This document shows, piece after piece, positions 14,807 through 42,653 of a stretch of DNA of 47,561 nucleotides. The translations under genes were made by a program, and so were the position numbers. This DNA is from a phage. The stretch is from the sequence record PZ324410.1; one strand, given 5' to 3'. How positions within the stretch are numbered: position 1 is the stretch's first letter; each line of letters starts with the position of its first letter. Under the pieces are notes generated by a model, which did no database searches, had not been told where the DNA came from, and saw only the letters and a list, made by a program, of their open reading frames with translations.

Positions 14807-15877
14807 ATGGAAAAGATTATTTTTACCAAAGACCTGGTAGCCAACTCCGCAGTGGTGGCTGACCAGTGGAAACATCTGACCATCGACCGCAAGGTGTTCT
14901 GCAATGCAGAAGCTGAACTGGCGAAAACATACGGTGTTAACGCCACCGCACTGGTAACGAAAGATTACTGGCGCGACGTGGATAACGTCACCACCCGCGT
15001 TTTCCGTAACGAAGCTGGTCAGGACATGATGGCTGACCTGATGGGTATCGCGGCAAACATCAATATCGGTAAGACTGTGGCAGTCAGCCGCATCGCTTCC
15101 GATGCCGGTAAGGTGGTCCGCACCCTGTCTGGTCAGGAGCCGGAAGATTTGGACAAAACTCGCTATGATTACACTGGCGATGTGATTCCAATCTTCAAGA
15201 CTGGCTACAGCCGTGAATGGCGTGAACTGCTGGGTATGCAGTCTGAAGGTTTTGACCCACTGCTGGACGATCAGGCTAACGTCACCTTTAACCTGCGTTC
15301 CGACATGGCGCAGTATCTGCTGACTGGCGACCAGACCCTGAACGTGAACGGCGTTTACACTGGCTACGGTATCACCAACCACCCGAACACTGTTCAGGTT
15401 AACCTGAGCACTTCCCCCGGCCTGAACATTGACCTGCAAACCGCAACGCCAGACGAAATCGTGAAATTCTTCAATCAGGATTTCCAGGCTATTCTGGATG
15501 CGCAGAACGTATTTGAGCAGGTGACTCTGTGGGTTTCCCCGGCAGTGCGTCGCAGCTTCATGCGCCCGTATTCTGATGCGGCTGGCTTCAAAGGTGGTAC
15601 TGTTGAGCAGTACATCACGCAGTTCGGCAATGGTCGCATCGGCAAGATTGGCACCAACTTCCTGCTGACAGGCAACCATTTCGTTGGCTATGTTCGCAAC
15701 GACATGTACATCCGTCCGCGTGTTGCTCAGCCTGTTTCCACCTATGCGGCTGCCCGCGCCAACCCGCACGATAACTTTAACTTCCTCGTGTGGTCAGCTT
15801 TTGGCCTGCAAATCCGTAAGGATTTCACTGGTAAGTCCAAAGTGTTCAACGGCTACGGTACGCAAACTCCGCTGTAA
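14807..15877 (+). CDS. major capsid protein
   Basis: 356-aa ORF in lambda E-like position; strong terminator follows. Confidence 0.75.
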   Translation: MEKIIFTKDLVANSAVVADQWKHLTIDRKVFCNAEAELAKTYGVNATALVTKDYWRDVDNVTTRVFRNEAGQDMMADLMGIAANINIGKTVAVSRIASDAGKVVRTLSGQEPEDLDKTRYDYTGDVIPIFKTGYSREWRELLGMQSEGFDPLLDDQANVTFNLRSDMAQYLLTGDQTLNVNGVYTGYGITNHPNTVQVNLSTSPGLNIDLQTATPDEIVKFFNQDFQAILDAQNVFEQVTLWVSPAVRRSFMRPYSDAAGFKGGTVEQYITQFGNGRIGKIGTNFLLTGNHFVGYVRNDMYIRPRVAQPVSTYAAARANPHDNFNFLVWSAFGLQIRKDFTGKSKVFNGYGTQTPL

Positions 15878-15883
15878 TAAAAA

Positions 15884-15905
15884 AGAGGGGCTTCGGCCCC
15901 TTTGT
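15884..15905 (+). terminator. rho-independent terminator
   Basis: ggggc ttcg gcccc hairpin followed by TTTG. Confidence 0.6.
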
Positions 15906-15921
15906 GAATTTGAGGTGAATA

Positions 15922-16119
15922 ATGGCTAAGTACGAAGTGATCGCACGCGGAATCTTTGTTAAAGAGAAAGGCAAGATTCGTGAATTGCAGCTCGGCGAGG
16001 TGATTACCGAACCAGCTGAGCATCTGCTACCAAAGCTGCGCGTCATGCCAGAGCTGGAAAGGTCTTTCGAAGTCGCAACACCACAAGAAAGGACGACAAA
16101 GAAAAAGAAAGCAGAGTAA
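15922..16119 (+). CDS. hypothetical protein
   Basis: 65-aa ORF between two terminators. Confidence 0.45.
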   Translation: MAKYEVIARGIFVKEKGKIRELQLGEVITEPAEHLLPKLRVMPELERSFEVATPQERTTKKKKAE

Positions 16120-16123
16120 ACAA

Positions 16124-16147
16124 AACCCGCATAATGCGGGTTTTTTA
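16124..16147. terminator. bidirectional rho-independent terminator
   Basis: aacccgc ataa tgcgggtt hairpin flanked by A-run and T-run. Confidence 0.65.
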
Positions 16148-16150
16148 TTG

Positions 16151-16690
16151 CTACAGACGCATCGGCATAACAACAATCTTCGCAGTCTCGCCAGATGGCG
16201 CACTAAGGCAGCAAACTGCTGCATTTGTATTTCCATTCAGTTCAAATTTGACACCACAGAATTTAGGATTAAACAGCTTCGCCACTTTCTCAATATCAAC
16301 AAGGTAGCCAGTATTGAATCCTATTTCCTCTGCTGCTTTCGTTTCCTTTGGTATCACGCGGTCAATATCGGGGAATCGACCATCAATCTCTTCGCAGATA
16401 CCAGCGCCAACCATCGCGCCAGCTTCATCATGATACGTTGCAATTTTCGACCCGGTATCAATGATGGCGTGCTCATAGCGCTTTGTTGGTGACTTGCCAA
16501 TCTTGATAATCACATTTTCCGTCAGCTTATTATCATGGACTCCGCCAATGAATGCACGATGGCCGTCAGTTGACGCAATGCGACCATCAGTCATAAAGCA
16601 GATGCCGTTCAGGTAGTATCGCACATCATTACGAGCCTGAAATATCAATGCTGACTCAAGTAATAGTTTGCTGATTTTTAGTTTCATCAC
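16151..16690 (-). CDS. truncated DNA polymerase III beta sliding-clamp homolog
   Basis: translation contains DVRYYLNG, TDGHR, DGRFPDxxRVxPK, EIGFN and C-terminal VVMPMRL, matching landmarks of the C-terminal two thirds of bacterial DnaN; about half normal length. Confidence 0.6.
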   Translation of the reverse strand: MMKLKISKLLLESALIFQARNDVRYYLNGICFMTDGRIASTDGHRAFIGGVHDNKLTENVIIKIGKSPTKRYEHAIIDTGSKIATYHDEAGAMVGAGICEEIDGRFPDIDRVIPKETKAAEEIGFNTGYLVDIEKVAKLFNPKFCGVKFELNGNTNAAVCCLSAPSGETAKIVVMPMRL

Positions 16691-16860
16691 TTCACCTTAA
16701 TCATGTGTTGTTTTGCAACCTTTAGGCATTCCTCAAAAATGCCACCCTTCTTAGTGCTCTGGTTTCGCTTGTAATACTGGATTGCCGCATCAATTGCCAT
16801 CTGGTCAATGTCAGGCAGCTTGTCACGAAGTTGTTTTTCGATGAATTGCTCAGCGTTCAT
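16687..16860 (-). CDS. hypothetical small protein
   Basis: ORF trimmed to ATG 16860 overlapping upstream stop. Confidence 0.4.
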   Translation of the reverse strand: MNAEQFIEKQLRDKLPDIDQMAIDAAIQYYKRNQSTKKGGIFEECLKVAKQHMIKVK

Positions 16861-17222
16861 AGGACCAACCACTTAGCTGGAATGATGTATCGAACTTCCG
16901 ATTCTGTTAAACCTAAGTCCATGCATATACTATCCACACTTTTCTGTGCAGGGTAATTTCGAGAGAAGTAGTTCCCCATCCACTCTCTAAGGCCTGTAAA
17001 GCATGGTATGTCATCGAAATCTGAGATGTCAGATGCAGCATTGAATGCCTTACTACATATCAAGCATTGTTTATAGGAAAACGCATCTCTTTCCGATGAT
17101 ACTCCTGATGAATACTTATATTTATCTCCTTTGTGTATTTCTCTTCCACACTCGCAGCATTTATGGCTCTTGATAGCTTTTCTTTCTATTTGTCTGAAAG
17201 CAAGTGGCTGTTCACCCATCAC
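16857..17222 (-). CDS. zinc-ribbon protein
   Basis: CCECG and CLIC Cys pairs in 121-aa ORF. Confidence 0.5.
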   Translation of the reverse strand: MMGEQPLAFRQIERKAIKSHKCCECGREIHKGDKYKYSSGVSSERDAFSYKQCLICSKAFNAASDISDFDDIPCFTGLREWMGNYFSRNYPAQKSVDSICMDLGLTESEVRYIIPAKWLVL

Positions 17223-18028
17223 ATCTTCTCCAGAATTGCCATGACCTCGTGAATATCAGCAACAGGAATCTGGATAAATTCCTCATCCTCTGCCACCACA
17301 TGACCAGCAGGGAGAATCACATGGTCAGCTGGCTTCAATAACTCAATCAGGCGGTCTACTGGCTTAATCTTTTTCGACTTCAGCACCTTTGCTGTGACTT
17401 TGTCCTTGCCTTGCGCCCTCGCTTCTTCTACCGCCTCGTCGATAACTTTTACTGCATCATCTCCATGTTCGCGCGTTACCGCTACGGCATTTGCATAGCT
17501 GATTTGTCCTGCACTGATGCGCGCTTTTACTTCCGCTGGAACATCACCCAGCGACAGATGCATTTGCACGTCAGATACTGAGCGGCCTACCTTTTTGGCA
17601 ATTTCTTCATTCGTCCAGCCAAAACCCTTCAGTCGCGTGTAAGCCTTTGCGCGTTCAAACGGGTCGAGTTGCTTGCCCTGACTGGATGACACCATGAAGG
17701 CGATTTTGTCAGCCTCGTCGCCAGTGAAATCCTTGCACTCAATGCGAACGATTGGTGCTCCGCGCTCAATGGCACGCAATGCGCCGAGATAGCGGTGCTG
17801 ACCATCAAGAATGCGGATTCCCTTCTCATCTGGAATAACTGTTAATGCTGGCAGTGGCTGTCCTGATTCCCAGCACTGCGCGAAATATTCAACGTGTTGC
17901 TCATCTGCTTCACGGATGTTATATCCAGGCTCCAGATAGATTTGCTCCACTGGCACGAGATAGGTTTTGTTCACAGCGATTCCGTTGCGCGTTTCTTTGT
18001 CTGAATAGATTTTGCTTAGTGTTTTCAT
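17219..18028 (-). CDS. ParB-like nuclease domain protein
   Basis: LDGQHRY-type ParB N-terminal motif plus predicted HTH segment (EEIAKKVGRSVSDV). Confidence 0.6.
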   Translation of the reverse strand: MKTLSKIYSDKETRNGIAVNKTYLVPVEQIYLEPGYNIREADEQHVEYFAQCWESGQPLPALTVIPDEKGIRILDGQHRYLGALRAIERGAPIVRIECKDFTGDEADKIAFMVSSSQGKQLDPFERAKAYTRLKGFGWTNEEIAKKVGRSVSDVQMHLSLGDVPAEVKARISAGQISYANAVAVTREHGDDAVKVIDEAVEEARAQGKDKVTAKVLKSKKIKPVDRLIELLKPADHVILPAGHVVAEDEEFIQIPVADIHEVMAILEKM

Positions 18029-18225
18029 TTAACTCTCGCCTCCATCATTCTTTCTGCGATAAGGTAAGCATGTTCAGCCTTCTCGCCATAACCCATATTT
18101 GGTGATGTAATTAATAGAGATTGCATTGCTTTTGCGGCAAAGTAATCACGTAGCGTTGCATCAGAAGCCATTTCTTGTCGCTTAACGTCATAATCAATAA
18201 ATTCATCTTTCATATCATTCACCAC
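18025..18225 (-). CDS. hypothetical protein
   Basis: 66-aa ORF, coupled. Confidence 0.45.
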   Translation of the reverse strand: MVNDMKDEFIDYDVKRQEMASDATLRDYFAAKAMQSLLITSPNMGYGEKAEHAYLIAERMMEARVK

Positions 18226-18406
18226 TTTCTTCTAACAATTGCTCGTAATATGCGACGTACTCATTGGCAAGATAGTACAGGCGCTCAGCAGACTTGCGTT
18301 CTGAATTACTTAAGTCATCAATAGACTCAATGTTGCCAATTGCATCAACACAATCATTGAAGTCTTGCTCCGTGTTACGAAATCGACAGTAGGACATGTT
18401 TGCCAT
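18215..18406 (-). CDS. hypothetical protein
   Basis: 63-aa acidic ORF. Confidence 0.45.
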   Translation of the reverse strand: MANMSYCRFRNTEQDFNDCVDAIGNIESIDDLSNSERKSAERLYYLANEYVAYYEQLLEESGE

Positions 18407-18408
18407 GA

Positions 18409-19032
18409 TTATTCCTCATCACCAGAATTAGCAATATCGTAAAACTGACCGTAGGTTATCTGCTTAAAGTTATCAGGTATCGTTACCTGTCCGTGACCTT
18501 CATCTTTTGTATTTGGCACGGCAAAAATCAGGCAATCATCCTTTTGCGGGTGTTTGCCGCCATAAGTAGACAGCATTGCAAAACCAAATCCGCGACCTGA
18601 TTGCTCGCCAATGCCTGTGCGTGCGATGCCGTAATGATTAACAATGTAGTCTTTCCATTCTGGCAATAACTTTAATTTCTCGTTTGCCTCGCGAATCACT
18701 GCGTCCAGCTTTTTGTTGTATTCTCGCCCGTCTTTTGTGTTACCCTTACCGCGAGCCACAATTACACGCTGACCTTCCCAAAAGTCTTCTCGCTTTATTG
18801 TCACTTGGCACGGAAATTCAAACTGCTTACTCCACACAAAACTCTCAAGCAAGCCACCACCAACAGCACCCCAACTGCGCGTTGTGGTAAATGCGATAGC
18901 ACCAACCTTTTTCATGGCATCGCCGAGAATTTCATTGCGGCGCTTTTGGATGTCGTCATATGCGTTAATAACTTTCTTAACATCAGCACCTTCAACCATG
19001 TAATAATCATAATGTTTTGCGTTACTGCTCAT
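18409..19032 (-). CDS. hypothetical protein (207 aa)
   Basis: ORF 18409..19050 trimmed to Met with GAGGTG RBS; first gene after promoter 19074..19102. Confidence 0.55.
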   Translation of the reverse strand: MSSNAKHYDYYMVEGADVKKVINAYDDIQKRRNEILGDAMKKVGAIAFTTTRSWGAVGGGLLESFVWSKQFEFPCQVTIKREDFWEGQRVIVARGKGNTKDGREYNKKLDAVIREANEKLKLLPEWKDYIVNHYGIARTGIGEQSGRGFGFAMLSTYGGKHPQKDDCLIFAVPNTKDEGHGQVTIPDNFKQITYGQFYDIANSGDEE

Positions 19033-19073
19033 CTTCATCACCTCTAACATTTATTGTTGTTTCTACGTCACTA

Positions 19074-19102
19074 ACTATAAACACCTCATCAATCTACGTC
19101 AA
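19074..19102 (-). promoter_or_regulatory. sigma70-like promoter TTGACG-N17-TATAGT on minus strand
   Basis: hexamers with 17-nt spacer on reverse complement; -35 lies in atctacgtcaa repeat. Confidence 0.45.
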
Positions 19103-24274: not shown

Positions 24275-24757
24275 TTACTTTTTGCCGTGGTTTTCATGAA
24301 AGTTATAATAAATTTCTGCATTTTTTCTAGCTCTCCCTGCATCATTGATATCACTAAAAAAACCCAATGAAATCTCTTTCTTGTTAACTGATATTCTCGC
24401 CCTCCACTTCCCCATTCTTTTGGACCAGCTAACGCCAACAATACCACTTGTGTTATCTATCCTTTTTGAAAGATTTACACTGTTTTCTTGCCTGCTTACA
24501 ATCCTCAGGTTTTCAATTCTGTTATCCAGCCTGTCATGGTTAATGTGATCAATCTCCATACCGTCAGGTATTGGGCCGTTATGCATTTCCCATATAACTC
24601 TATGCACAAGCTGCGTTTTGCCAAACAAGCTAACCTGCAAATAACCATCTGGTCGAACAGTTCCTGCATTATGACCAGCCATGGCATTTGAAGACCTCCT
24701 TGCTTTCCATTTCAAGGCACCACAATCATATTCAAAAATATCATCCAAAATATTCAT
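24275..24757 (-). CDS. HNH homing endonuclease (HNH + AP2-like)
   Basis: LVHRVIWEMHNGPIPDGMEIDHINHDRLDNRIENLR and GIVGVSW motifs; paralog of 46263..46766. Confidence 0.7.
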   Translation of the reverse strand: MNILDDIFEYDCGALKWKARRSSNAMAGHNAGTVRPDGYLQVSLFGKTQLVHRVIWEMHNGPIPDGMEIDHINHDRLDNRIENLRIVSRQENSVNLSKRIDNTSGIVGVSWSKRMGKWRARISVNKKEISLGFFSDINDAGRARKNAEIYYNFHENHGKK

Positions 24758-24834
24758 CTTAAAACCACCAATCAAGACAATTAAGATACAAATCTACATC
24801 ATATCTACACCATCATCAATTGGTTTTCTCTCTA

Positions 24835-34542: not shown

Positions 34543-34968
34543 CTAATTTTGTTTTGGATAATTCTTCGATCTCCAGTCGTTAAAAGCCATCATTGCTGCT
34601 TCCCATCCTAGCGCTACACACACTGTGCATCCGGCATTTAAAGATGCGGAAAGGTAATCAATCTGGCCTTCCTCCCAATCGCTAAGAGTGTGGTCTTTCC
34701 TCTTCATCTCAATAACAAGAGATGGATTTCCAGGGATTATTATATCTGACGCACCTTTATTTAAAGCGCCTTTCTTTTTTAGGTTGCTGACCTCATGTGC
34801 TTTTCTCTTTCCTTCGTTTGGAATGTGAAGCACCAGCCGACCAAAACTATCAGGATACATTTTCCTCAATTGATTTATAAAAGTTACAAGCTCAGCGTCT
34901 TCAACATGACACTTCTTGTCTCTGTATGTTTTATCTCCATATACCTTTAGCCATTCAGGAAAAATCAT
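34543..34968 (-). CDS. VRR-NUC domain nuclease
   Basis: PD-(D/E)xK-like core DIIIPG...VIEMKRK in 141-aa ORF trimmed to ATG 34968. Confidence 0.5.
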   Translation of the reverse strand: MIFPEWLKVYGDKTYRDKKCHVEDAELVTFINQLRKMYPDSFGRLVLHIPNEGKRKAHEVSNLKKKGALNKGASDIIIPGNPSLVIEMKRKDHTLSDWEEGQIDYLSASLNAGCTVCVALGWEAAMMAFNDWRSKNYPKQN

Positions 34969-36830
34969 AATACCCCCCAATACATGCCTTTAACGTTGAA
35001 ATATTTACTACCCTTATCTCTTCTGAACATAATCACTGATGGCGAGACAGCCTCATCTCTTTTAGATATTGCATCATCAATTGACATGTTATGTTCACCA
35101 AAGCACTTCTCACAAAATTCTTCCCACTCCTTCTTCATCCATTCCTTCTCAGAGTTTGGATTGTAGAACTTGCTAACAAAAAATGGTTTCTGTTCAATAG
35201 CAAATTTTACGTGCACCAAATCTTCACCGCTTGAAACGTAATGCTTCATGATGTTCATCATGGTTACACTTGATTGCTTGGTTGCATAAGGAGAAGAATC
35301 AAGCCTGTCAGCTTCTTCCTTTAGTTTTTGGTTGGGGTCAATAATTTCAGCTCCGCATGATGTGCAATTTCTTGCTGCTATATCATTTTCAAACCCACAA
35401 TCTGGACACTCCTTTACCGACCATTTATAAGTACACCTATGCATTTCCCTTAGTGGTCCATGCATAACGTAGTTTTTACACCGCCTACCAAAATGAGCAG
35501 GCATGGGCTTGCTTCCAATCTTTTCACCTGACTTATCAAAAATATCAATCATTACTCTGTCACCCGCCAAATCCAGCCAGTAACCTTCCTTGTCAACTTC
35601 AAGATTTTCAGGATTTGGGCGCACACCAAATTCATTAATAAAGCCACAAAGAGGGCATTTGACATCCATTGGCACGGATGGTTTTTTCCTTGTTGCTTTT
35701 ATTTCTGGAGTGAACAAGTCCCCGGTCTCAGAAAAGTGACGTTGAATATTGCCTGCGTAATCGCTGACAAGAAAGTCTTCCTTGCCTTCATAAAGACGCG
35801 TCCCCCTGCCAATTATTTGCTGGTATAGTCTTGGTGATTCTGTGGCTCTCATTACTGCTATGTGATCACAATGAGGAACATCCACCCCTACAGTAAGGAT
35901 ATTCTGATTGACGATGTATTTAACTTTTTGCGCCTTGAAGTCTGATATTGCCTTATTGCGTTCAGCTGTCGGCATATCACCAAAAACATAACTATAAGAA
36001 CCGGGAGGCAGTGACTCCATTATCTCCATAGCGTGTTTCTTTGTGCTGGCAAAAATCATCGTTCCGAGACGATTAACGGAGCGACGGATAATATCTTCAA
36101 CAATACGTGATGTCTTCCTTCCCTTGCCAACCATCGCCTTTTCAACTGAAGATGTTGTGTACCGACCCAACTTATCCTTTTCAAGACAAGACGTATCATA
36201 CTCGTCAAAAACAGGCTCTGTAACTGGCGGCGTAAGGTATCCGTTTTCAATGAGGAATTTCGCCTCAAGCTCATAAACGACTTTGTCGTAATATGGGTCT
36301 ATGGCTGTTTCTTCATCTGTAGGACCGTCGAGGTAATGCTCTTTGTAGATGTATCCAGTTCCAAGGCGATAAGGCGTAGCGGTCATTCCAATAACACGCA
36401 GTTTTGGATTGCGACGCTTCATTTCATTAATAATAAATTTAATGGTTGGTGTTATTCCATCGCACTCATCAATAATGACAGCACCATACTTATCACCAAA
36501 CATCTCTATTGAGTTCTTGATTGTAACTGGTGAACCAAACACCACCGGATGACGCAGGTTTTTTGGGCCAGCCTTTGCACTGAACATGCTGGCTGGTTCT
36601 CCGGTGAGAAGATATTTAGCGCGATTTTGTGTGACGAGTTCCGCCGTGGGAGCAATGCACAAAACTCGCTTTTTGCTCATGCCATAAATACGAGATGCAA
36701 GTTCTGCTACAACCATAGATTTTCCTGCACCTGTAGGTAGGATGATAACGCATGATGAGATTGTGCTGCGAATGTGTGCCATAGCTGAATCAACAGCTTC
36801 CTGTTGGTATGGCCTTAGTGTGTATTTCAT
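34965..36830 (-). CDS. SF2 DEAD/DEAH-box DNA helicase with C-terminal zinc fingers
   Basis: Walker A PTGAGKS, DECD box, MTATP motif, QIIGRGTR motif VI; Cys pairs near C-terminus. Confidence 0.8.
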   Translation of the reverse strand: MKYTLRPYQQEAVDSAMAHIRSTISSCVIILPTGAGKSMVVAELASRIYGMSKKRVLCIAPTAELVTQNRAKYLLTGEPASMFSAKAGPKNLRHPVVFGSPVTIKNSIEMFGDKYGAVIIDECDGITPTIKFIINEMKRRNPKLRVIGMTATPYRLGTGYIYKEHYLDGPTDEETAIDPYYDKVVYELEAKFLIENGYLTPPVTEPVFDEYDTSCLEKDKLGRYTTSSVEKAMVGKGRKTSRIVEDIIRRSVNRLGTMIFASTKKHAMEIMESLPPGSYSYVFGDMPTAERNKAISDFKAQKVKYIVNQNILTVGVDVPHCDHIAVMRATESPRLYQQIIGRGTRLYEGKEDFLVSDYAGNIQRHFSETGDLFTPEIKATRKKPSVPMDVKCPLCGFINEFGVRPNPENLEVDKEGYWLDLAGDRVMIDIFDKSGEKIGSKPMPAHFGRRCKNYVMHGPLREMHRCTYKWSVKECPDCGFENDIAARNCTSCGAEIIDPNQKLKEEADRLDSSPYATKQSSVTMMNIMKHYVSSGEDLVHVKFAIEQKPFFVSKFYNPNSEKEWMKKEWEEFCEKCFGEHNMSIDDAISKRDEAVSPSVIMFRRDKGSKYFNVKGMYWGVL

Positions 36831-37204
36831 AAGTCAAACTCCTTGCACCACTCGACAACATGCTCGCACTGCTTAACATCAAACATTCCTATGTGACACT
36901 TCTCTTTTCTTATTCCCATCGAACTAGCTAATGCAGAATAAGCAGAGCCTCTTGACATTTTTCCTGATTTCCATAAGGGATCAAATGCAGCATGGGCTTT
37001 GCTTTTTGCCTTTCTTAATTCTTCATTTGCCACACGCCCAAGAGGTCTTTTCCCATCACCATTTTTGTGGCAACCAACATAAGCACCACAAGAATCACAT
37101 AGATAAAAATTAAGAGACGAAAGGTCTGGTCTGTGTGGGTAAATTTCACTCCCTTTAGCTAGTCTTGTCGCAATATTGCAGTAATCACAGATAACTTCGT
37201 ACAT
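36827..37204 (-). CDS. zinc-finger protein
   Basis: CDYC and CDSC Cys pairs; ORF trimmed to ATG 37204 with GGGGG RBS. Confidence 0.5.
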   Translation of the reverse strand: MYEVICDYCNIATRLAKGSEIYPHRPDLSSLNFYLCDSCGAYVGCHKNGDGKRPLGRVANEELRKAKSKAHAAFDPLWKSGKMSRGSAYSALASSMGIRKEKCHIGMFDVKQCEHVVEWCKEFDL

Positions 37205-37261
37205 ATAAACCCCCAATTAAAAGCCCCTTAGCGGGGCTTTATTTAAATAAACATCAAGTCA

Positions 37262-37783
37262 TTAAAACGGCACGTCAGAGTCAAAGTCCATCGGAGGCTC
37301 GTTAGATGGCGCTGATTGCTTAGGAGCAGGCGCTGATTTTGTTTGTTGACGACTGAAAACACCAGCCACATAGTTACCAGTTTTTTGCTTATCCTCAGAT
37401 TCCCAAACGCGCAGAAGAAGGATCATCGGGCGATTAGCAAGCGCACTAGCAATAGCAAAATCAGTCGGCTCTTTCCCTGACGCCATCAGCTTGCCACCAG
37501 CGTTTGCGTCAATTGCTGCAAGCATAGTGATAGCATTGTCGCGCTGCTTTTCTTTTGAGCTAAATACTTTCAGCTTCTGGAAGATGATGCGATTTTTATA
37601 CTCACCATCAAGGATTCTCCACTTAAGATTGAAGAATCGCTCACCTTCCCACTGATCGTCTTTACACTCTTCAACGGCAGCAAGAACACGGCTGCCATCA
37701 GGAATTACTTCGAAACCACCACCCAGCTCAAATTCAGATTTAGATTCAACAGCTTTACCGTCAGAAAGATTCCAGAAACCCAT
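37262..37783 (-). CDS. putative ssDNA-binding protein with SSB-like acidic C-terminal tip
   Basis: C-terminus MDFDSDVPF resembles bacterial SSB tip DFDDDIPF; sits beside Gp157 and AAA_24 genes. Confidence 0.5.
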   Translation of the reverse strand: MGFWNLSDGKAVESKSEFELGGGFEVIPDGSRVLAAVEECKDDQWEGERFFNLKWRILDGEYKNRIIFQKLKVFSSKEKQRDNAITMLAAIDANAGGKLMASGKEPTDFAIASALANRPMILLLRVWESEDKQKTGNYVAGVFSRQQTKSAPAPKQSAPSNEPPMDFDSDVPF

Positions 37784-37800
37784 TTTTGTGTCCTCTCGAT

Positions 37801-38280
37801 TTATTTGATGATCAGTTTTGGCTTGCCATCTGTAATGGCACAACCCTTAATCTCAATCCCGGCTTTTATCGCATTTTTAATTGCTGCGTTATCTGCCGAC
37901 ACTTTCACAACGCGGTACTGCTCAGGAAGCTGTTCAACAGGGACAAACACATCAAGAACTGGTGATGGTTTTCCAAGCGTGATACTGAACAACTTACCTT
38001 TGATGTTTGTCTTTCCTGACGCCATCATGTTTTGACGAAGATAATCTTTAAGGTTATCAATCTTCGCAACTAAAACACGCTTACGCTCAGAAAGACGGTC
38101 AATCTCTGATTTAAGTCCAGCTTCATCAGCTTCAAGCTCACGAATGTAAGCAGCAACCATTTCAGCCTTTCCTTCAAACTCCTCTTCAATAAGATTGATG
38201 GTATCTTCAATCTGCTCCCGTGGAATATCCTCCATCGCCAGTAGTTCATTAAGCTGTTTGGTTATCTCGTAGAGATGCAT
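37801..38280 (-). CDS. Sipho_Gp157 family protein
   Basis: N-terminal MHLYEITKQLNEL and coiled-coil typical of Gp157; start uncertain. Confidence 0.55.
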   Translation of the reverse strand: MHLYEITKQLNELLAMEDIPREQIEDTINLIEEEFEGKAEMVAAYIRELEADEAGLKSEIDRLSERKRVLVAKIDNLKDYLRQNMMASGKTNIKGKLFSITLGKPSPVLDVFVPVEQLPEQYRVVKVSADNAAIKNAIKAGIEIKGCAITDGKPKLIIK

Positions 38281-39091
38281 AATATTTAATCTCACTCAAA
38301 AGTGGGTTCTCACCTTTTTCAAAAGGAATTTCAGGTTCAAGGTTGTATCTGTTTTTAGCATTAACATACCCAATACGACCATCACCAGAGGTGATAAGAA
38401 CTCGCTGACCAGTCTGAACAACCTTTCCAAACTTGGTGACTTGCCCTTTCTTATCAGTCTCAGTTCCTTTCACAAACTCTTCATTTCTGATGTAAATAAC
38501 AGCATCACTAAGATTCACATAACCAGAAACTGAAGCATCATGCATGTCAAGTGTGTAAACGGTGTATTCATCAGCATCAGGTCGATTCTTCATCTTTTTA
38601 ACACCTGCGTGTGCAAGATAAATAATGCTCATCCCTTTTTCTTTGCGAAGATACTTGCATGCATTTATTATTTCAGCGTGCATTTCAGAAACAACAATAT
38701 ATCCTTTGTTGTAACCACCAGCCGCAGAACCTACGTTGTCAACACCGTAATTTTCACAAACCTCATGCTCAAACATTGAATGCAGGCTTGTGATTGAGTC
38801 AATTACAAGCGTTTTGTAATTATGTTCCTCAGTAATTAATGCGCGTAGCTGTGACAGCAAATCATCCTTTGTGCTTGTTTTGCGTTTAGCGTCAGCGCGA
38901 TTCAGAACAGGAAATGAATCAGGTTTCTTTTCATCATCCCAGTCATCAAAAACACCAGTGATCTCTTCAGCCTGAATAAACACTGGGTTTGGGAATAGCG
39001 CCGCAAGAGTTGTCTTGCCTACACCTGGAGTACCAACCAATGTTATGATTGGTGCTGCTGGTTTTGGTTTTTGAATCATTGATAAGCTCAT
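38249..39091 (-). CDS. AAA_24 family ATPase (Sak4-like)
   Basis: Walker A GTPGVGKTT and Walker B-like VIDSITSL; GAGAGGACA RBS. Confidence 0.7.
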   Translation of the reverse strand: MSLSMIQKPKPAAPIITLVGTPGVGKTTLAALFPNPVFIQAEEITGVFDDWDDEKKPDSFPVLNRADAKRKTSTKDDLLSQLRALITEEHNYKTLVIDSITSLHSMFEHEVCENYGVDNVGSAAGGYNKGYIVVSEMHAEIINACKYLRKEKGMSIIYLAHAGVKKMKNRPDADEYTVYTLDMHDASVSGYVNLSDAVIYIRNEEFVKGTETDKKGQVTKFGKVVQTGQRVLITSGDGRIGYVNAKNRYNLEPEIPFEKGENPLLSEIKYYASLRDNQTA

Positions 39092-39225
39092 AGTGTCCTC
39101 TCGATTTAACTCAGCATATCGCTGGTGTGACTTAAAGATACGTCAACATGATGGTAAACGCAATAGCTTGACGCAAATTTTTTTTGAGTTCATTATTGCT
39201 GCATACAGATAGCAGAGGTAAACAC

Positions 39226-39468
39226 ATGAAAAGCATCGCAGAACAGATAAGAGAAATGGAACAGACGAAGTTGTCGGAGCTGATTGATTATGTTGGAGGG
39301 CAATCACAACTGGCAAGATTTCTTGGTGTGTCAAAACAGGCTGTCAATCAGTGGGTGTCAAGAGGAAGAATTAGTGCTACAGCAGCAATTGATGCCGAGG
39401 CGCTTACTGGTGGAGTTTTCAGAAAGGAAGATTTAAGGCCAGCTGTTACAAAATGGATTGTTAAATAA
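39226..39468 (+). CDS. Cro/YdaS-like HTH DNA-binding protein
   Basis: helix-turn-helix QSQLARFLGVSKQAVNQW; divergent from recombination operon; ORF trimmed to ATG 39226. Confidence 0.6.
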   Translation: MKSIAEQIREMEQTKLSELIDYVGGQSQLARFLGVSKQAVNQWVSRGRISATAAIDAEALTGGVFRKEDLRPAVTKWIVK

Positions 39469-39470
39469 TA

Positions 39471-39497
39471 AAGCCCGCGTTTGCGGGCTTTTTTTAA
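39471..39497. terminator. bidirectional rho-independent terminator
   Basis: aagcccgc gttt gcgggctt hairpin then TTTTTTT. Confidence 0.7.
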
Positions 39498-39889
39498 ACT
39501 CCTTTTGAGCTTAAGCTATCTTTATCACGCCTTCCGCTATACTCTTTGCTTACATCCTCGTACAAAACACCAAACGCCTTACAGAAATTAAATAGTGCGT
39601 CACCCGCAAACACTTCGCTTGGATGCCAGTTTCCGGATTTTCTTGCAACATCCCTGTACGATGCTGTCACTATACCTACATTGTTTTCATATTGTATTCG
39701 ACAAAACAGTACGTCATCATCAATGCAGATACCCATATTGCAGCGGAATACGGGCATTTTCCAGTAGTAAACCTCCATCAGGTGTTTCCCTGTCATCATG
39801 GATATTGCGTTATCATGTGCGCGCTCAGGATTTTCTGACTCAAAATAGTCATACAAACCCCTCATCACCAGATACTTGTAATTGATCAT
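39494..39889 (-). CDS. hypothetical protein
   Basis: 131-aa ORF, overlap-coupled to primase gene. Confidence 0.5.
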   Translation of the reverse strand: MINYKYLVMRGLYDYFESENPERAHDNAISMMTGKHLMEVYYWKMPVFRCNMGICIDDDVLFCRIQYENNVGIVTASYRDVARKSGNWHPSEVFAGDALFNFCKAFGVLYEDVSKEYSGRRDKDSLSSKGV

Positions 39890-42219
39890 ATCTCAACCTC
39901 ATCATTTGTTAATTTATAAATTATTACGTTGTGAGATGTTCTTTTTGCATTTTCATCAATGCAAATAATACCATCTGATAACAACTTCTCTACGCACCTC
40001 TCGACATCAGCACGTTTATACCCACCTTCTTTTGCCACCCCTCTAACCATTGCTGTTTTGGTCATTCCACGCTTCACATATTCTTTAACCATGGAGAAAA
40101 TACCTTCAATTCTTTCTTCCATAGCTTTAGACTTCGCTCCGGCGATACTGTCAGCACGCATCATCAGATCGCTTGTTGATTTAATTGTTAATGCTACCGC
40201 ATATCTCAAGTGCTCCATGGTTATGACACCAGTATCGCACGCAAGAATGCCAGCAATCTTTGCCACTTTTACAGCGCATCTGTTTATCAATGGATGATAA
40301 CCAGTACCGTTTTCTACATGCTTTCTTGCAACGGTTTTAATCCATGAGAAGAACTCCTTAGCGAGCTGAGAAACTTCAGGAGTAGCTTTTATAATCCGTC
40401 TTTCTTTTTGACTGATTATTGAGTCTGTCCAGTTTTTGTGCCCAGCGGTTCCGCCATTTATTATTGTTTTTATGGTCAGTTGCATATCCATTGGCAGATC
40501 GCAGTAGTTGACGTTTTCGTTTTCGTCAGCAATCTCCTGCAACTCCTGCATAATCATTGCGCGCCCCATAAGACCTGACTTAATGTTTTCTTCAGTAATA
40601 AGGCGCTTAAACTGATCATCAGTAGACACGCCAAAGATTGAAAAAAATGGATTCCTTATAGCTCCATCAATTCTGTTTATCACATCATCAAACTGACACT
40701 TAATGTCAACAGGGTCTGCCTGTATCTCATTTTCCTCAATAGCCATCAACAGCATAGCCTTTCTCTTTTCGAAAGACTTAATGAAATCCTCAGTAACCCG
40801 CTGGTCACAATAAAGAACTTCTGACGTGTAAGCCTCCATGATCGCACCAGCGGTTGCCATGTTGTACTCGCTTACTTTCTGACCAACAACACTACCAAGT
40901 TTTATCCCAATCTCATCCATGATGATATTAAACATCTGGTTAGCACAAAGACCTTCATATATCGCACGCTCTGAACGTATCTTACCGGCGACAGTCTTAC
41001 TCAATCCTGAGCAATCAATTATCTTTTGTAGCGCAGCAAGAACATCACCCTTACCTGAACCTGAACCAGCGATACCAACAGCAAAAAGGTTTGGCAAAGC
41101 CTTCCTGTTTGTAAGGTAAATATCAGATGACGCTCCGCAAATCATGGATGCGGCATGCAATGCGGCAAGTGCTGCAATGTTCTCTCGCTTCTCTGCACAG
41201 TTCTTATTAATCCACGCCGTAAGGCGACCAACAAATCCAGGCGGATAACGGACATCAACACTTTTGTACTCTACAGGGCATTCACCAACACCCATTGCCA
41301 TCTCTCGCTCGAAAGACTCAAGTTTCTCAATTTCCTCTGGAGTAGCCTCAAAAGTTACTTGCCTTACCCACCCTCCCTCTTGCGCGAGATAAACCAGCGT
41401 TGCTTCGGTTATCTTTTCGCTAACACCGTCCTTTCCAAAGGAATGCCATTTTGCGTCCATCTCTTCAGCTCTGTACTTGCTGAACTGCGATGACCACCTA
41501 TCCCAAAGCTCAAAACCATTGCCTTCTGTAGCTTCGTGGATAGCCATACCTACATGAAGCCATGGGTCATACTCATCACCATCTTTGATGTATTTGAGCA
41601 TATCCTCCATTTCGGAAATGCTGTAATTTTTACTATCAAGCGTGAAAACCTCGTCTTCCGTTCTCTCAGGACGCAACAAAAGCTCAATAAGTTCAGATGG
41701 ACATTCAGTTATCTCTGAAGGGGATCCATGCTCGGCCTCATAAAAGTTTCCAGTTTTATGAAAAGAACCACATCCAACAACAAAACCAGAGGATTTAAAG
41801 TCAATACCCTTAAACCTTCTGTCATGAGAGCGCAGCTTTATTCCTTCAGGAAGTTTGTAATAGATGTGGCGACCACCACCACCAGTCTTAACCGTAAAAC
41901 CAGCTTCGTCAGCAAGCTCTACGTCTAAGGCATCACAAAGCGATTCATATCCATCATTACCTCCGTTGCGTGGATCAATATCAACGACCAGATAACCATT
42001 CACAAGGACACCGAATGACTGCAGTTGACCATATTCAGCCATATTTTCAATCTGGTCATCAGCCCATATAACTCCAAGCTGCCAGTTACTCATAACCGGA
42101 TGCTTACCGGCAGCATTGCAATCTGGATCACCGCATGTGCAATTGCGGTCGATATCCATTGCATGGATTCCAATAATAGGGAAGCCACATTTGCGGTAAT
42201 CTTCATAACCAATCATCAT
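39886..42219 (-). CDS. DNA primase/helicase (Prim-Pol N-terminal domain plus P-loop NTPase)
   Basis: N-terminal Prim-Pol-like region with acidic DIDPRNGG motif; Walker A GIAGSGSGKG in central region. Confidence 0.7.
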   Translation of the reverse strand: MMIGYEDYRKCGFPIIGIHAMDIDRNCTCGDPDCNAAGKHPVMSNWQLGVIWADDQIENMAEYGQLQSFGVLVNGYLVVDIDPRNGGNDGYESLCDALDVELADEAGFTVKTGGGGRHIYYKLPEGIKLRSHDRRFKGIDFKSSGFVVGCGSFHKTGNFYEAEHGSPSEITECPSELIELLLRPERTEDEVFTLDSKNYSISEMEDMLKYIKDGDEYDPWLHVGMAIHEATEGNGFELWDRWSSQFSKYRAEEMDAKWHSFGKDGVSEKITEATLVYLAQEGGWVRQVTFEATPEEIEKLESFEREMAMGVGECPVEYKSVDVRYPPGFVGRLTAWINKNCAEKRENIAALAALHAASMICGASSDIYLTNRKALPNLFAVGIAGSGSGKGDVLAALQKIIDCSGLSKTVAGKIRSERAIYEGLCANQMFNIIMDEIGIKLGSVVGQKVSEYNMATAGAIMEAYTSEVLYCDQRVTEDFIKSFEKRKAMLLMAIEENEIQADPVDIKCQFDDVINRIDGAIRNPFFSIFGVSTDDQFKRLITEENIKSGLMGRAMIMQELQEIADENENVNYCDLPMDMQLTIKTIINGGTAGHKNWTDSIISQKERRIIKATPEVSQLAKEFFSWIKTVARKHVENGTGYHPLINRCAVKVAKIAGILACDTGVITMEHLRYAVALTIKSTSDLMMRADSIAGAKSKAMEERIEGIFSMVKEYVKRGMTKTAMVRGVAKEGGYKRADVERCVEKLLSDGIICIDENAKRTSHNVIIYKLTNDEVEI

Positions 42220-42653
42220 TTAACCCTCACCACATAAGCGGTATTACGTGCAACCATCTTGACACTGAATTTTTTTTGCAGCTTCTTACCAACCACGGAA
42301 AGCGCACTTCTCAACTGCTCAATACTCCTTATCAACGCAAAATCATCAAACACAAAATGCTTTCCCTTACCCAAACCAAGTCGGTAGACGAAGTTGCGAG
42401 CCTCTCCCTCCATTGTCGGTTTTTGCTCCCACACAGACGCGGCCCGTTTTTTTACCCTTTGCTCCTTGCATTTTATTTCACACGGGAGATGCGGCTTCCG
42501 CCACGCCATATACCTCTCAGCCTCCTCTATTGTTTTGAAAAACTTTGCATAGGTAAAATCATGCAGAAAACCACATCTACCGCTGGCATATACCTTTTTA
42601 CCATCAGCCCCAATTGCCTCAATGTAGTACCTTTTCATATCCCAACACCTCAC
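42216..42653 (-). CDS. hypothetical protein
   Basis: 145-aa basic ORF, coupled. Confidence 0.5.
   Translation of the reverse strand: MRCWDMKRYYIEAIGADGKKVYASGRCGFLHDFTYAKFFKTIEEAERYMAWRKPHLPCEIKCKEQRVKKRAASVWEQKPTMEGEARNFVYRLGLGKGKHFVFDDFALIRSIEQLRSALSVVGKKLQKKFSVKMVARNTAYVVRVK

Follow-up and report, generated by a model that had tools for sequence, protein, structure and literature searches.

The window, that is, the whole stretch of DNA analysed (47,561 nt), which is an essentially complete Skatevirus-type siphophage genome, carries on its minus strand a gene for a short homologue of the bacterial beta sliding clamp (DnaN), here called the mini beta-clamp. By alignment, the DnaN pieces that have been retained are exactly those forming both walls of the peptide-binding pocket, and the pieces that have been lost are those forming the ring-closing interface. 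We tentatively favour, at a confidence somewhat short of an even chance, the view that the product is a ring-less, dimeric docking module for host proteins with clamp-binding motifs, probably tethering them on the phage DNA. The gene and the two parts of its product are as follows:

16151..16690, minus strand: mini beta-clamp CDS, 179 aa when read from the GTG at 16690, with the stop codon at 16151-16153
16337..16690, minus strand: domain II equivalent, codons 1-118, corresponding to DnaN ~129-253
16154..16336, minus strand: C-terminal half of domain III, codons 119-179, corresponding to DnaN 313-366

The initial annotation had described the product as a half-length homologue of DnaN, and the searches agree with it. 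A phmmer search against PDB sequences returned beta clamps only, with E. coli beta at E = 2.5e-13, and placed residues 8-155 on DnaN 136-289 and residues 119-179 on DnaN 313-366. A profile-profile comparison (hhalign) of 98 family members with E. coli DnaN (P0A988) gave a probability of 99.5% and E = 1.1e-22, covering DnaN 137-366 with one large deletion at DnaN ~255-312. The curated models were matched only below their cut-offs, TIGR00663 with 37.2 bits against 137.65, and Pfam DNA_pol3_beta_2 and _3 with 18.5 and 16.1 bits, respectively, against 27; it is thus to be classed as a DnaN homologue rather than as a DnaN proper. All five motifs listed in the initial annotation were found, in the order in which they occur in DnaN. 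Codons 1-118 hold DVRYYLNG, TDGH and the IDGRFPDxxRVxP connector, which make up one side of the pocket, and codons 119-179 hold IGFNxxY and the C-terminal MPMRL, which make up the other.

Each clamp domain of DnaN consists of two beta-alpha-beta-beta-beta motifs in tandem, and the beta2 ring contains 12 such motifs in six domains. As the alignments read, the mini-clamp is domain II of DnaN plus the second motif of domain III, and thus has 1.5 domains in 179 aa compared with three domains in the ~366 aa of DnaN. The first motif of domain III (DnaN 254-289) can also be aligned with residues 119-155, with no gap after the inter-domain connector, and this gap-free alignment suggests that one pseudo-repeat was cleanly excised. 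The alignment is limited to domains II and III, so that a domain-I equivalent is indeed absent, as had been claimed, and the dimer-interface regions (domain I and the N-terminal half of domain III) are missing across the whole family. Because both halves of the head-to-tail interface are absent, the canonical six-domain beta2 ring is impossible, and the earlier statement that no normal head-to-tail dimer could form holds on both counts.

Conservation within the family was measured on the 98-sequence alignment, whose columns are on average only 21% identical. Three columns, G43, P107 and P176 (G174, P242 and P363 of DnaN), are invariant, and the columns conserved at 90% or more, besides the initiator Met, are D150, R152, Y154, L155, T172, H175, Y323, M362 and R365 in DnaN numbering. 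In DnaN, the hydrophobic pocket is built from V247, L177, V360, P242 and M362, and clamp-binding peptides form hydrogen bonds to G174, M362 and P363 and contact R152, H175 and R246 (Patoli et al. 2013, PMC3716654). The mean frequency of the top residue was 0.72 at the 21 pocket positions vs 0.38 elsewhere (Mann-Whitney p = 2e-7), and pocket residues account for 11 of the 20 most conserved columns (hypergeometric p = 3e-7). The pocket residues are present between the II-like and III-like parts of the mini-clamp, and in the predicted model their geometry is like that of real clamps. Retention of the pocket, on which the initial annotation had not commented, is the strongest functional clue, from which we infer that the protein would bind peptides. 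The conservation may be partly structural because the same residues form the core of the domain II/III interface, a point that counts against the docking reading. It fits equally well a rather unlikely alternative, in which the protein would be a soluble decoy whose pocket works off the DNA and titrates selected host proteins away from the host clamp, making it a host-takeover or anti-defence accessory. Its possible targets would be Hda/RIDA, MutS/MutL, the translesion polymerases or some clamp-dependent factor harmful to the phage.

The AlphaFold2 model of the monomer, built with the 98-sequence alignment, is compact and of very high confidence (pLDDT 97.1, pTM 0.91) and has the clamp fold, and all the structural neighbours of this model are sliding clamps. 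It contains two long helices (8-17 and 127-140) compared with six in DnaN, and there is no helix at the place of the second, DNA-facing helix of DnaN domain II. The missing inner helix argues against a classical DNA-encircling surface in the predicted structure; it weighs against a tether on DNA and is in keeping with a decoy. Two copies of the protein were also modelled in one chain with 25-aa Gly/Ser linkers, an alignment concatenated likewise (23 sequences) and a Pol II peptide at the end. This linked run gave a pTM of 0.75; the pLDDT was 85-94 over most of the subunit blocks and ~30 in the linkers. Had the two copies been placed independently, a pTM of only ~0.43 would be expected by our own estimate; AlphaFold is therefore confident about how the copies lie with respect to one another, which suggests a homodimer. 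We infer from the model that the half-domains could complement each other to rebuild one clamp domain, giving a two-fold crescent equivalent to three domains with two pockets. The Pol II clamp-binding peptide TLMTGQLGLF, attached through a 25-aa linker, was left undocked (pLDDT 25-30) in this run, a weak test with no control peptide and with the pocket-forming C-terminus extended by the linker; the result speaks against docking on a tether and against a decoy alike.

Beyond the dimer itself, two further constructions were weighed. One, which we consider quite unlikely, is that half-domain complementation yields an open dimeric crescent or even a D2 tetrameric ring that would bind DNA with no loader and, through its beta-type pockets, allow polymerase-less phages to bring host Pol III and other clamp clients straight to their own DNA; if true, neither bacteria nor phages would have shown a sliding-clamp architecture of this kind before. 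The other, which we regard as improbable, is a true sliding clamp of new construction, in which two dimers would form a D2 tetrameric ring encircling DNA and four pockets would recruit host polymerases. Such a ring is arithmetically possible, as four chains of three motifs equal the 12 motifs of beta2, yet each chain lacks one of its three inner helices, and the ring would therefore have 8 inner helices, not 12. Furthermore, a closed ring would need a loader, and the mini-clamp lacks the N-terminal half of domain III that the host loader contacts. The gene is also dispensable, as described below, and this speaks against a ring as well.

The initial annotation had also raised the idea that the protein caps or poisons the host clamp. 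Here the domain-II-like beta-edge would pair with a free edge of a host DnaN protomer to give mixed assemblies that can be neither closed nor loaded, thereby hijacking or shutting off host replication. The protein is a DnaN homologue with free sheet edges whose neighbouring domains are missing, and other phages do target the host clamp, for instance through Gp168 of phage Twort (complex with the beta clamp, PDB 7evp). Nevertheless, the protein lacks both elements of the native interface (domain I and the N-terminal half of domain III), the strongest conservation in the family lies on the pocket and not on the sheet edges, and AlphaFold prefers self-association. The phage cannot do without the host clamp and Pol III, and the gene is dispensable. 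The beta2 dimer is extremely stable, so that capture of a protomer within a short lytic cycle would be kinetically unfavourable. Taken with these points, we hold a poison or cap to be very improbable.

With regard to DNA, DnaN is acidic and the mini-clamp family slightly basic, with a median pI of 8.3 vs 5.25 for DnaN, and conserved K/R residues occupy positions 20, 135, 138 and 143, on or beside the two helices. The basic pI and these residues are hints that the mini-clamp may bind DNA. A decoy would require neither the basic shift nor the conserved helix lysines.

The protein belongs to a well-populated phage family. It matches phrog_3007 from end to end at E = 2.7e-61, with residues 2-179 on profile positions 1-186 of 190. 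A tblastn search found 292 phage records from Salmonella, Escherichia, Vibrio, Klebsiella, Acinetobacter, Proteus, Burkholderia and other hosts; hit counts in the phage collection are inflated by the presence of about 70 records that are laboratory genome-reduced clones of phage seszw. In an exhaustive HMMER scan of 1.84 billion cluster representatives, 189 clusters were obtained at E ≤ 1e-10, nearly all of them 165-215 aa in length, and the first full-length DnaN appeared only near E = 1e-11. The architecture is kept over at least 189 clusters at 50% identity, down to ~30% identity, with the C-terminus intact. By this distribution, the family is a large, old and selected phage family and not a decayed fragment.

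The annotations in circulation tell a different story. The Bcep43 gp15 protein was matched by tblastn, and the Bcep43/Bcep781 annotation reads 'DNA Pol III b subunit fragment'; phrog_3007, for its part, is labelled 'RusA-like Holliday junction resolvase', and this label has been copied into many RefSeq and Pharokka-style annotations, such as NC_054645.1 (excerpt L002, 4004-4540). Both labels speak for reading the gene as a functionless remnant of a captured host dnaN or as a RusA-like resolvase, a reading to which we give hardly any credence. A remnant is at odds with the architecture conserved in at least 189 clusters, the invariant pocket residues and the intact C-terminus, and the GC content of the gene equals that of the phage (0.448 vs 0.455). 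A resolvase is unsupported: there is no RusA model among the Pfam matches at E ≤ 10, and the fold and all structural neighbours are those of sliding clamps. The conservation pattern effectively refutes this reading.

Short phage homologues of the polIII-beta subunit were already noticed in 2011 (Kazlauskas & Venclovas, NAR 39:8291, PMC3201878), and together with phrog_3007 they are of the same family and length class as the protein in the window. In the literature searched, no structural or functional study of these short homologues was found. What is new here is the 1.5-domain map, the pocket-centred conservation and the predicted homodimer, together with the link to published deletion mutants and the finding that the PHROG resolvase label is unsupported.

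In the window, the mini-clamp gene closes a leftward operon of seven genes that lies within the head-gene region and in which stop and start codons overlap. Its elements, in the direction of transcription, are:

19074..19102, minus strand: sigma-70-like promoter, TTGACG-17-TATAGT, 10/12, a consensus match only, just 5' of the first gene of the operon
18409-19050, minus strand: operon gene, 213 aa, phrog_2260
18215-18406, minus strand: operon gene
18025-18225, minus strand: operon gene
17219-18028, minus strand: operon gene for a ParB-HTH protein
16857-17222, minus strand: operon gene, 121 aa, Cys-rich (CCECG...CLIC)
16687-16872, minus strand: operon gene, 61 aa, directly upstream of the mini-clamp gene
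16693..16698, minus strand: Shine-Dalgarno-like AAGGTG, 5 nt 5' of the ATG at 16687
16122..16144, no strand assigned: bidirectional terminator-like hairpin of the intrinsic type, 10-bp stem with 5 GC pairs

The true start of the mini-clamp is probably the ATG at 16687, which is the second codon of the 16151-16690 ORF and gives a product of 178 aa. This start is the likelier one because it has AAGGTG 5 nt ahead and overlaps the TGA (16687-16689) of the preceding 61-aa ORF; the start/stop overlap suggests that translation of the mini-clamp is coupled to that of the 61-aa ORF. The hairpin has a full T tail on the plus strand and a weaker one on the minus strand (GTTTACTC), and it separates the mini-clamp gene from the converging capsid-side ORF at 15922-16119 (plus strand) and ends the leftward operon. 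What lies between the ParB-like gene and the mini-clamp gene differs among relatives: the 121-aa Cys-rich ORF here, two small ORFs in LPST10, and a DNA methyltransferase or 'C-specific methylase' in Bas79 (excerpt L001, 17312-18109), HC6 and others. PADLOC returned no defence-system match for the mini-clamp or three operon neighbours.

The initial annotation had placed the gene in an antisense island far from the phage replication genes, and this is accurate for the window, where the leftward operon lies within the head-gene region and the replication genes lie elsewhere:

34543-42653, minus strand: replication/recombination module with a SNF2-type helicase (621 aa), an SSB-like protein, a Mu Gam-like protein, a Sak4-like annealase and a 777-aa primase

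Among the ORFs scanned in the replication region of the window there was none for a DNA polymerase, and the annotation of the close relative Bas79 lists none either. The phage, having no DNA polymerase, therefore relies on the host Pol III/clamp machinery. This dependence bears on the decoy, as a general decoy would also sequester the Pol III alpha and delta subunits that a polymerase-less phage needs.

The placement differs in other phage lineages. Neighbours were compared over 22 loci with <80% identity, found with a 12-sequence alignment. The gene is located inside replication modules in other lineages. In Enterobacter phage ST22, a helicase and a nuclease are followed by the mini-clamp gene, and in two temperate-like IMG/VR contigs (L059 and L067), whose mini-clamps are 46-56% identical, it opens a replication block of the lambdoid kind, being directly followed by an O-like initiator (phrog_345) and then by a DnaB-type helicase. 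In L067 this lambdoid replication block sits downstream of a CI/LexA-type S24 repressor. As these temperate-looking contigs carry the gene, the family is not restricted to virulent phages. Placement inside replication modules, which is frequent, speaks against a decoy. On the other hand, Bcep43 and Dhillonvirus again carry the gene as an insertion running opposite to the head genes, and an Acinetobacter myophage has it in the tail module. Such stand-alone insertion in structural modules, as also in the window, is more typical of host-takeover and anti-defence genes and so weighs against the docking reading; the moron-like placement in several lineages, with the gene under its own sigma-70-like promoter and terminator, fits a decoy.

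The neighbours themselves are heterogeneous over the 22 loci, and a single conserved neighbour is ruled out. A ParB-HTH gene precedes the mini-clamp in 4/22 loci, a SNF2/ResIII helicase adjoins it in 4/22, and Nmad5 is a neighbour in 2/22. In Dhillonvirus, which has its own DNA polymerase, the mini-clamp is paired with an Nmad5 protein. The Nmad5 of Escherichia phage rolling (rolling_40; excerpt L005, 4183-4944; Pfam E = 7e-56) is a predicted DNA-base-modification factor, and a point mutation in the Nmad5 gene lets Dhillonviruses escape the Tmn defence system (PMC11846954). A general link to DNA modification, through Nmad5 in Dhillonvirus and ParB/methyltransferase in Skatevirus, was considered and rejected as it holds in only a minority of lineages. 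The company of ParB-like proteins, DNA methyltransferases, Nmad5 and, in LPST10, an annotated 'anti-restriction protein' nevertheless adds to the case for a decoy. The lack of a universal phage partner points to a host-encoded partner or to DNA. A scan of all ORFs of the window for QL[SD]LF-like motifs gave 10 matches, about the number expected by chance on a rough estimate, and no partner stood out, which is a point against docking as far as phage partners are concerned. The best-looking clamp-binding-like motif was QVSLF in an HNH endonuclease, probably also a chance match.

Published deletion mutants give direct information on the need for the gene. The genome of Skatevirus seszw was reduced by iterative CRISPR deletion (Yuan et al. 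2022, PMC9825161), and the product of its gene 16 is 91.6% identical to the mini-clamp of the window. At ≥99% identity, the seszw coat gene was found in 72 records of the phage collection, gene 16 in 47 and gene 17, the small gene upstream of it that corresponds to the 61-aa ORF of the window, in 15. In clones such as seszw_290L (36.5 kb; 'L' stands for large plaques), genes 16 and 17 have been cleanly removed and the ParB-like gene 18 has been kept. Because viable seszw clones lacking the gene exist, the mini-clamp gene is accessory, being non-essential for lytic growth on the laboratory host, and an essential replisome component is ruled out. The viability of the deletions, including a large-plaque clone, means that any replication role is auxiliary, and this restrains the docking reading; dispensability in the laboratory fits a decoy. 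The seszw clones (MZ375295-MZ375353 and OL9647xx) form a ready-made data set on gene dispensability, in which most have lost gene 17 and roughly a third the mini-clamp gene, whereas all those listed retain the ParB-like gene.

The docking module with a DNA tether is favoured because of the dependence on host Pol III, the frequent placement in replication modules, the basic character of the family and the apparent self-association. In this mechanism, the protein would, as modelled, self-associate into a homodimer with two pockets, and the pockets would dock host proteins with clamp-binding motifs, such as Pol III alpha/delta, Pol I, ligase, Hda, MutS/L and Pol II/IV/V. The dimer would most likely act as an open tether of the 'C-clamp' type on the phage DNA, with no need for a clamp loader, and the outcome would be a gain, though not an essential one, for phage replication or recombination dependent on the host polymerase.

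The closest analogues in design are the herpesvirus processivity factors HSV UL42, HCMV UL44, KSHV PF-8 and EBV BMRF1, which have the clamp fold and work with neither a closed ring nor a loader. The clamp fold is common to both groups, and a sequence relationship is undetectable. Each herpesvirus chain comprises two full domains and binds the polymerase of its own virus, whereas the mini-clamp has 1.5 domains and a pocket of the bacterial type and is found in phages whether or not they encode a polymerase. For HCMV UL44, binding to DNA as a dimer through lysines has been proposed (PMC1950537), and it is used here as an analogy for the putative mini-clamp tether. Gp168 of the Staphylococcus phage Twort and MuC of phage Mu (PMC12867686) are also cases of phage manipulation of the clamp and its binding-motif network. 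These two exploit or block the host clamp from outside, as ligands with no sequence relationship to it, whereas the mini-clamp is a homologue of the clamp that keeps the receptor side, the pocket.

The beta-clamp pocket, an antibiotic target, is the hub at which the polymerases of bacteria come together with the clamp loader, ligase, mismatch repair and Hda. A compact, naturally evolved and apparently soluble pocket module of 178 aa, found in hundreds of phages of Escherichia, Salmonella, Klebsiella, Vibrio, Acinetobacter and Burkholderia, would show how phages rewire this hub. If it is a loader-free tether for Pol III, it would explain a replication edge of some polymerase-less phages, and if it is a decoy, it would represent a new class of host-takeover protein. 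It could also serve as a minimal scaffold in screening for pocket binders and could exemplify the evolution of the clamp fold through excision of one internal pseudo-repeat. In addition, the analysis corrects the unsupported resolvase label in RefSeq phage annotations.

Some further features of the phage were recorded. The 4 kb at 15000-19000 are 100% identical to Escherichia phage ECO95 1-6-1, and further relatives of the phage are LPST10, Akira, seszw and Bas77-80. There is no terminal direct repeat of 11-200 bp in the window. Position 1 of the window is the ATG of the large terminase gene (1-1425), and the sequence is 50 bp longer than the nearest GenBank record (47,511 bp). The HNH endonuclease mentioned above is a homing-endonuclease ORF (phrog_99, E = 6e-67), which lies between tail genes on the opposite strand:

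24275-24775, minus strand: HNH homing-endonuclease ORF
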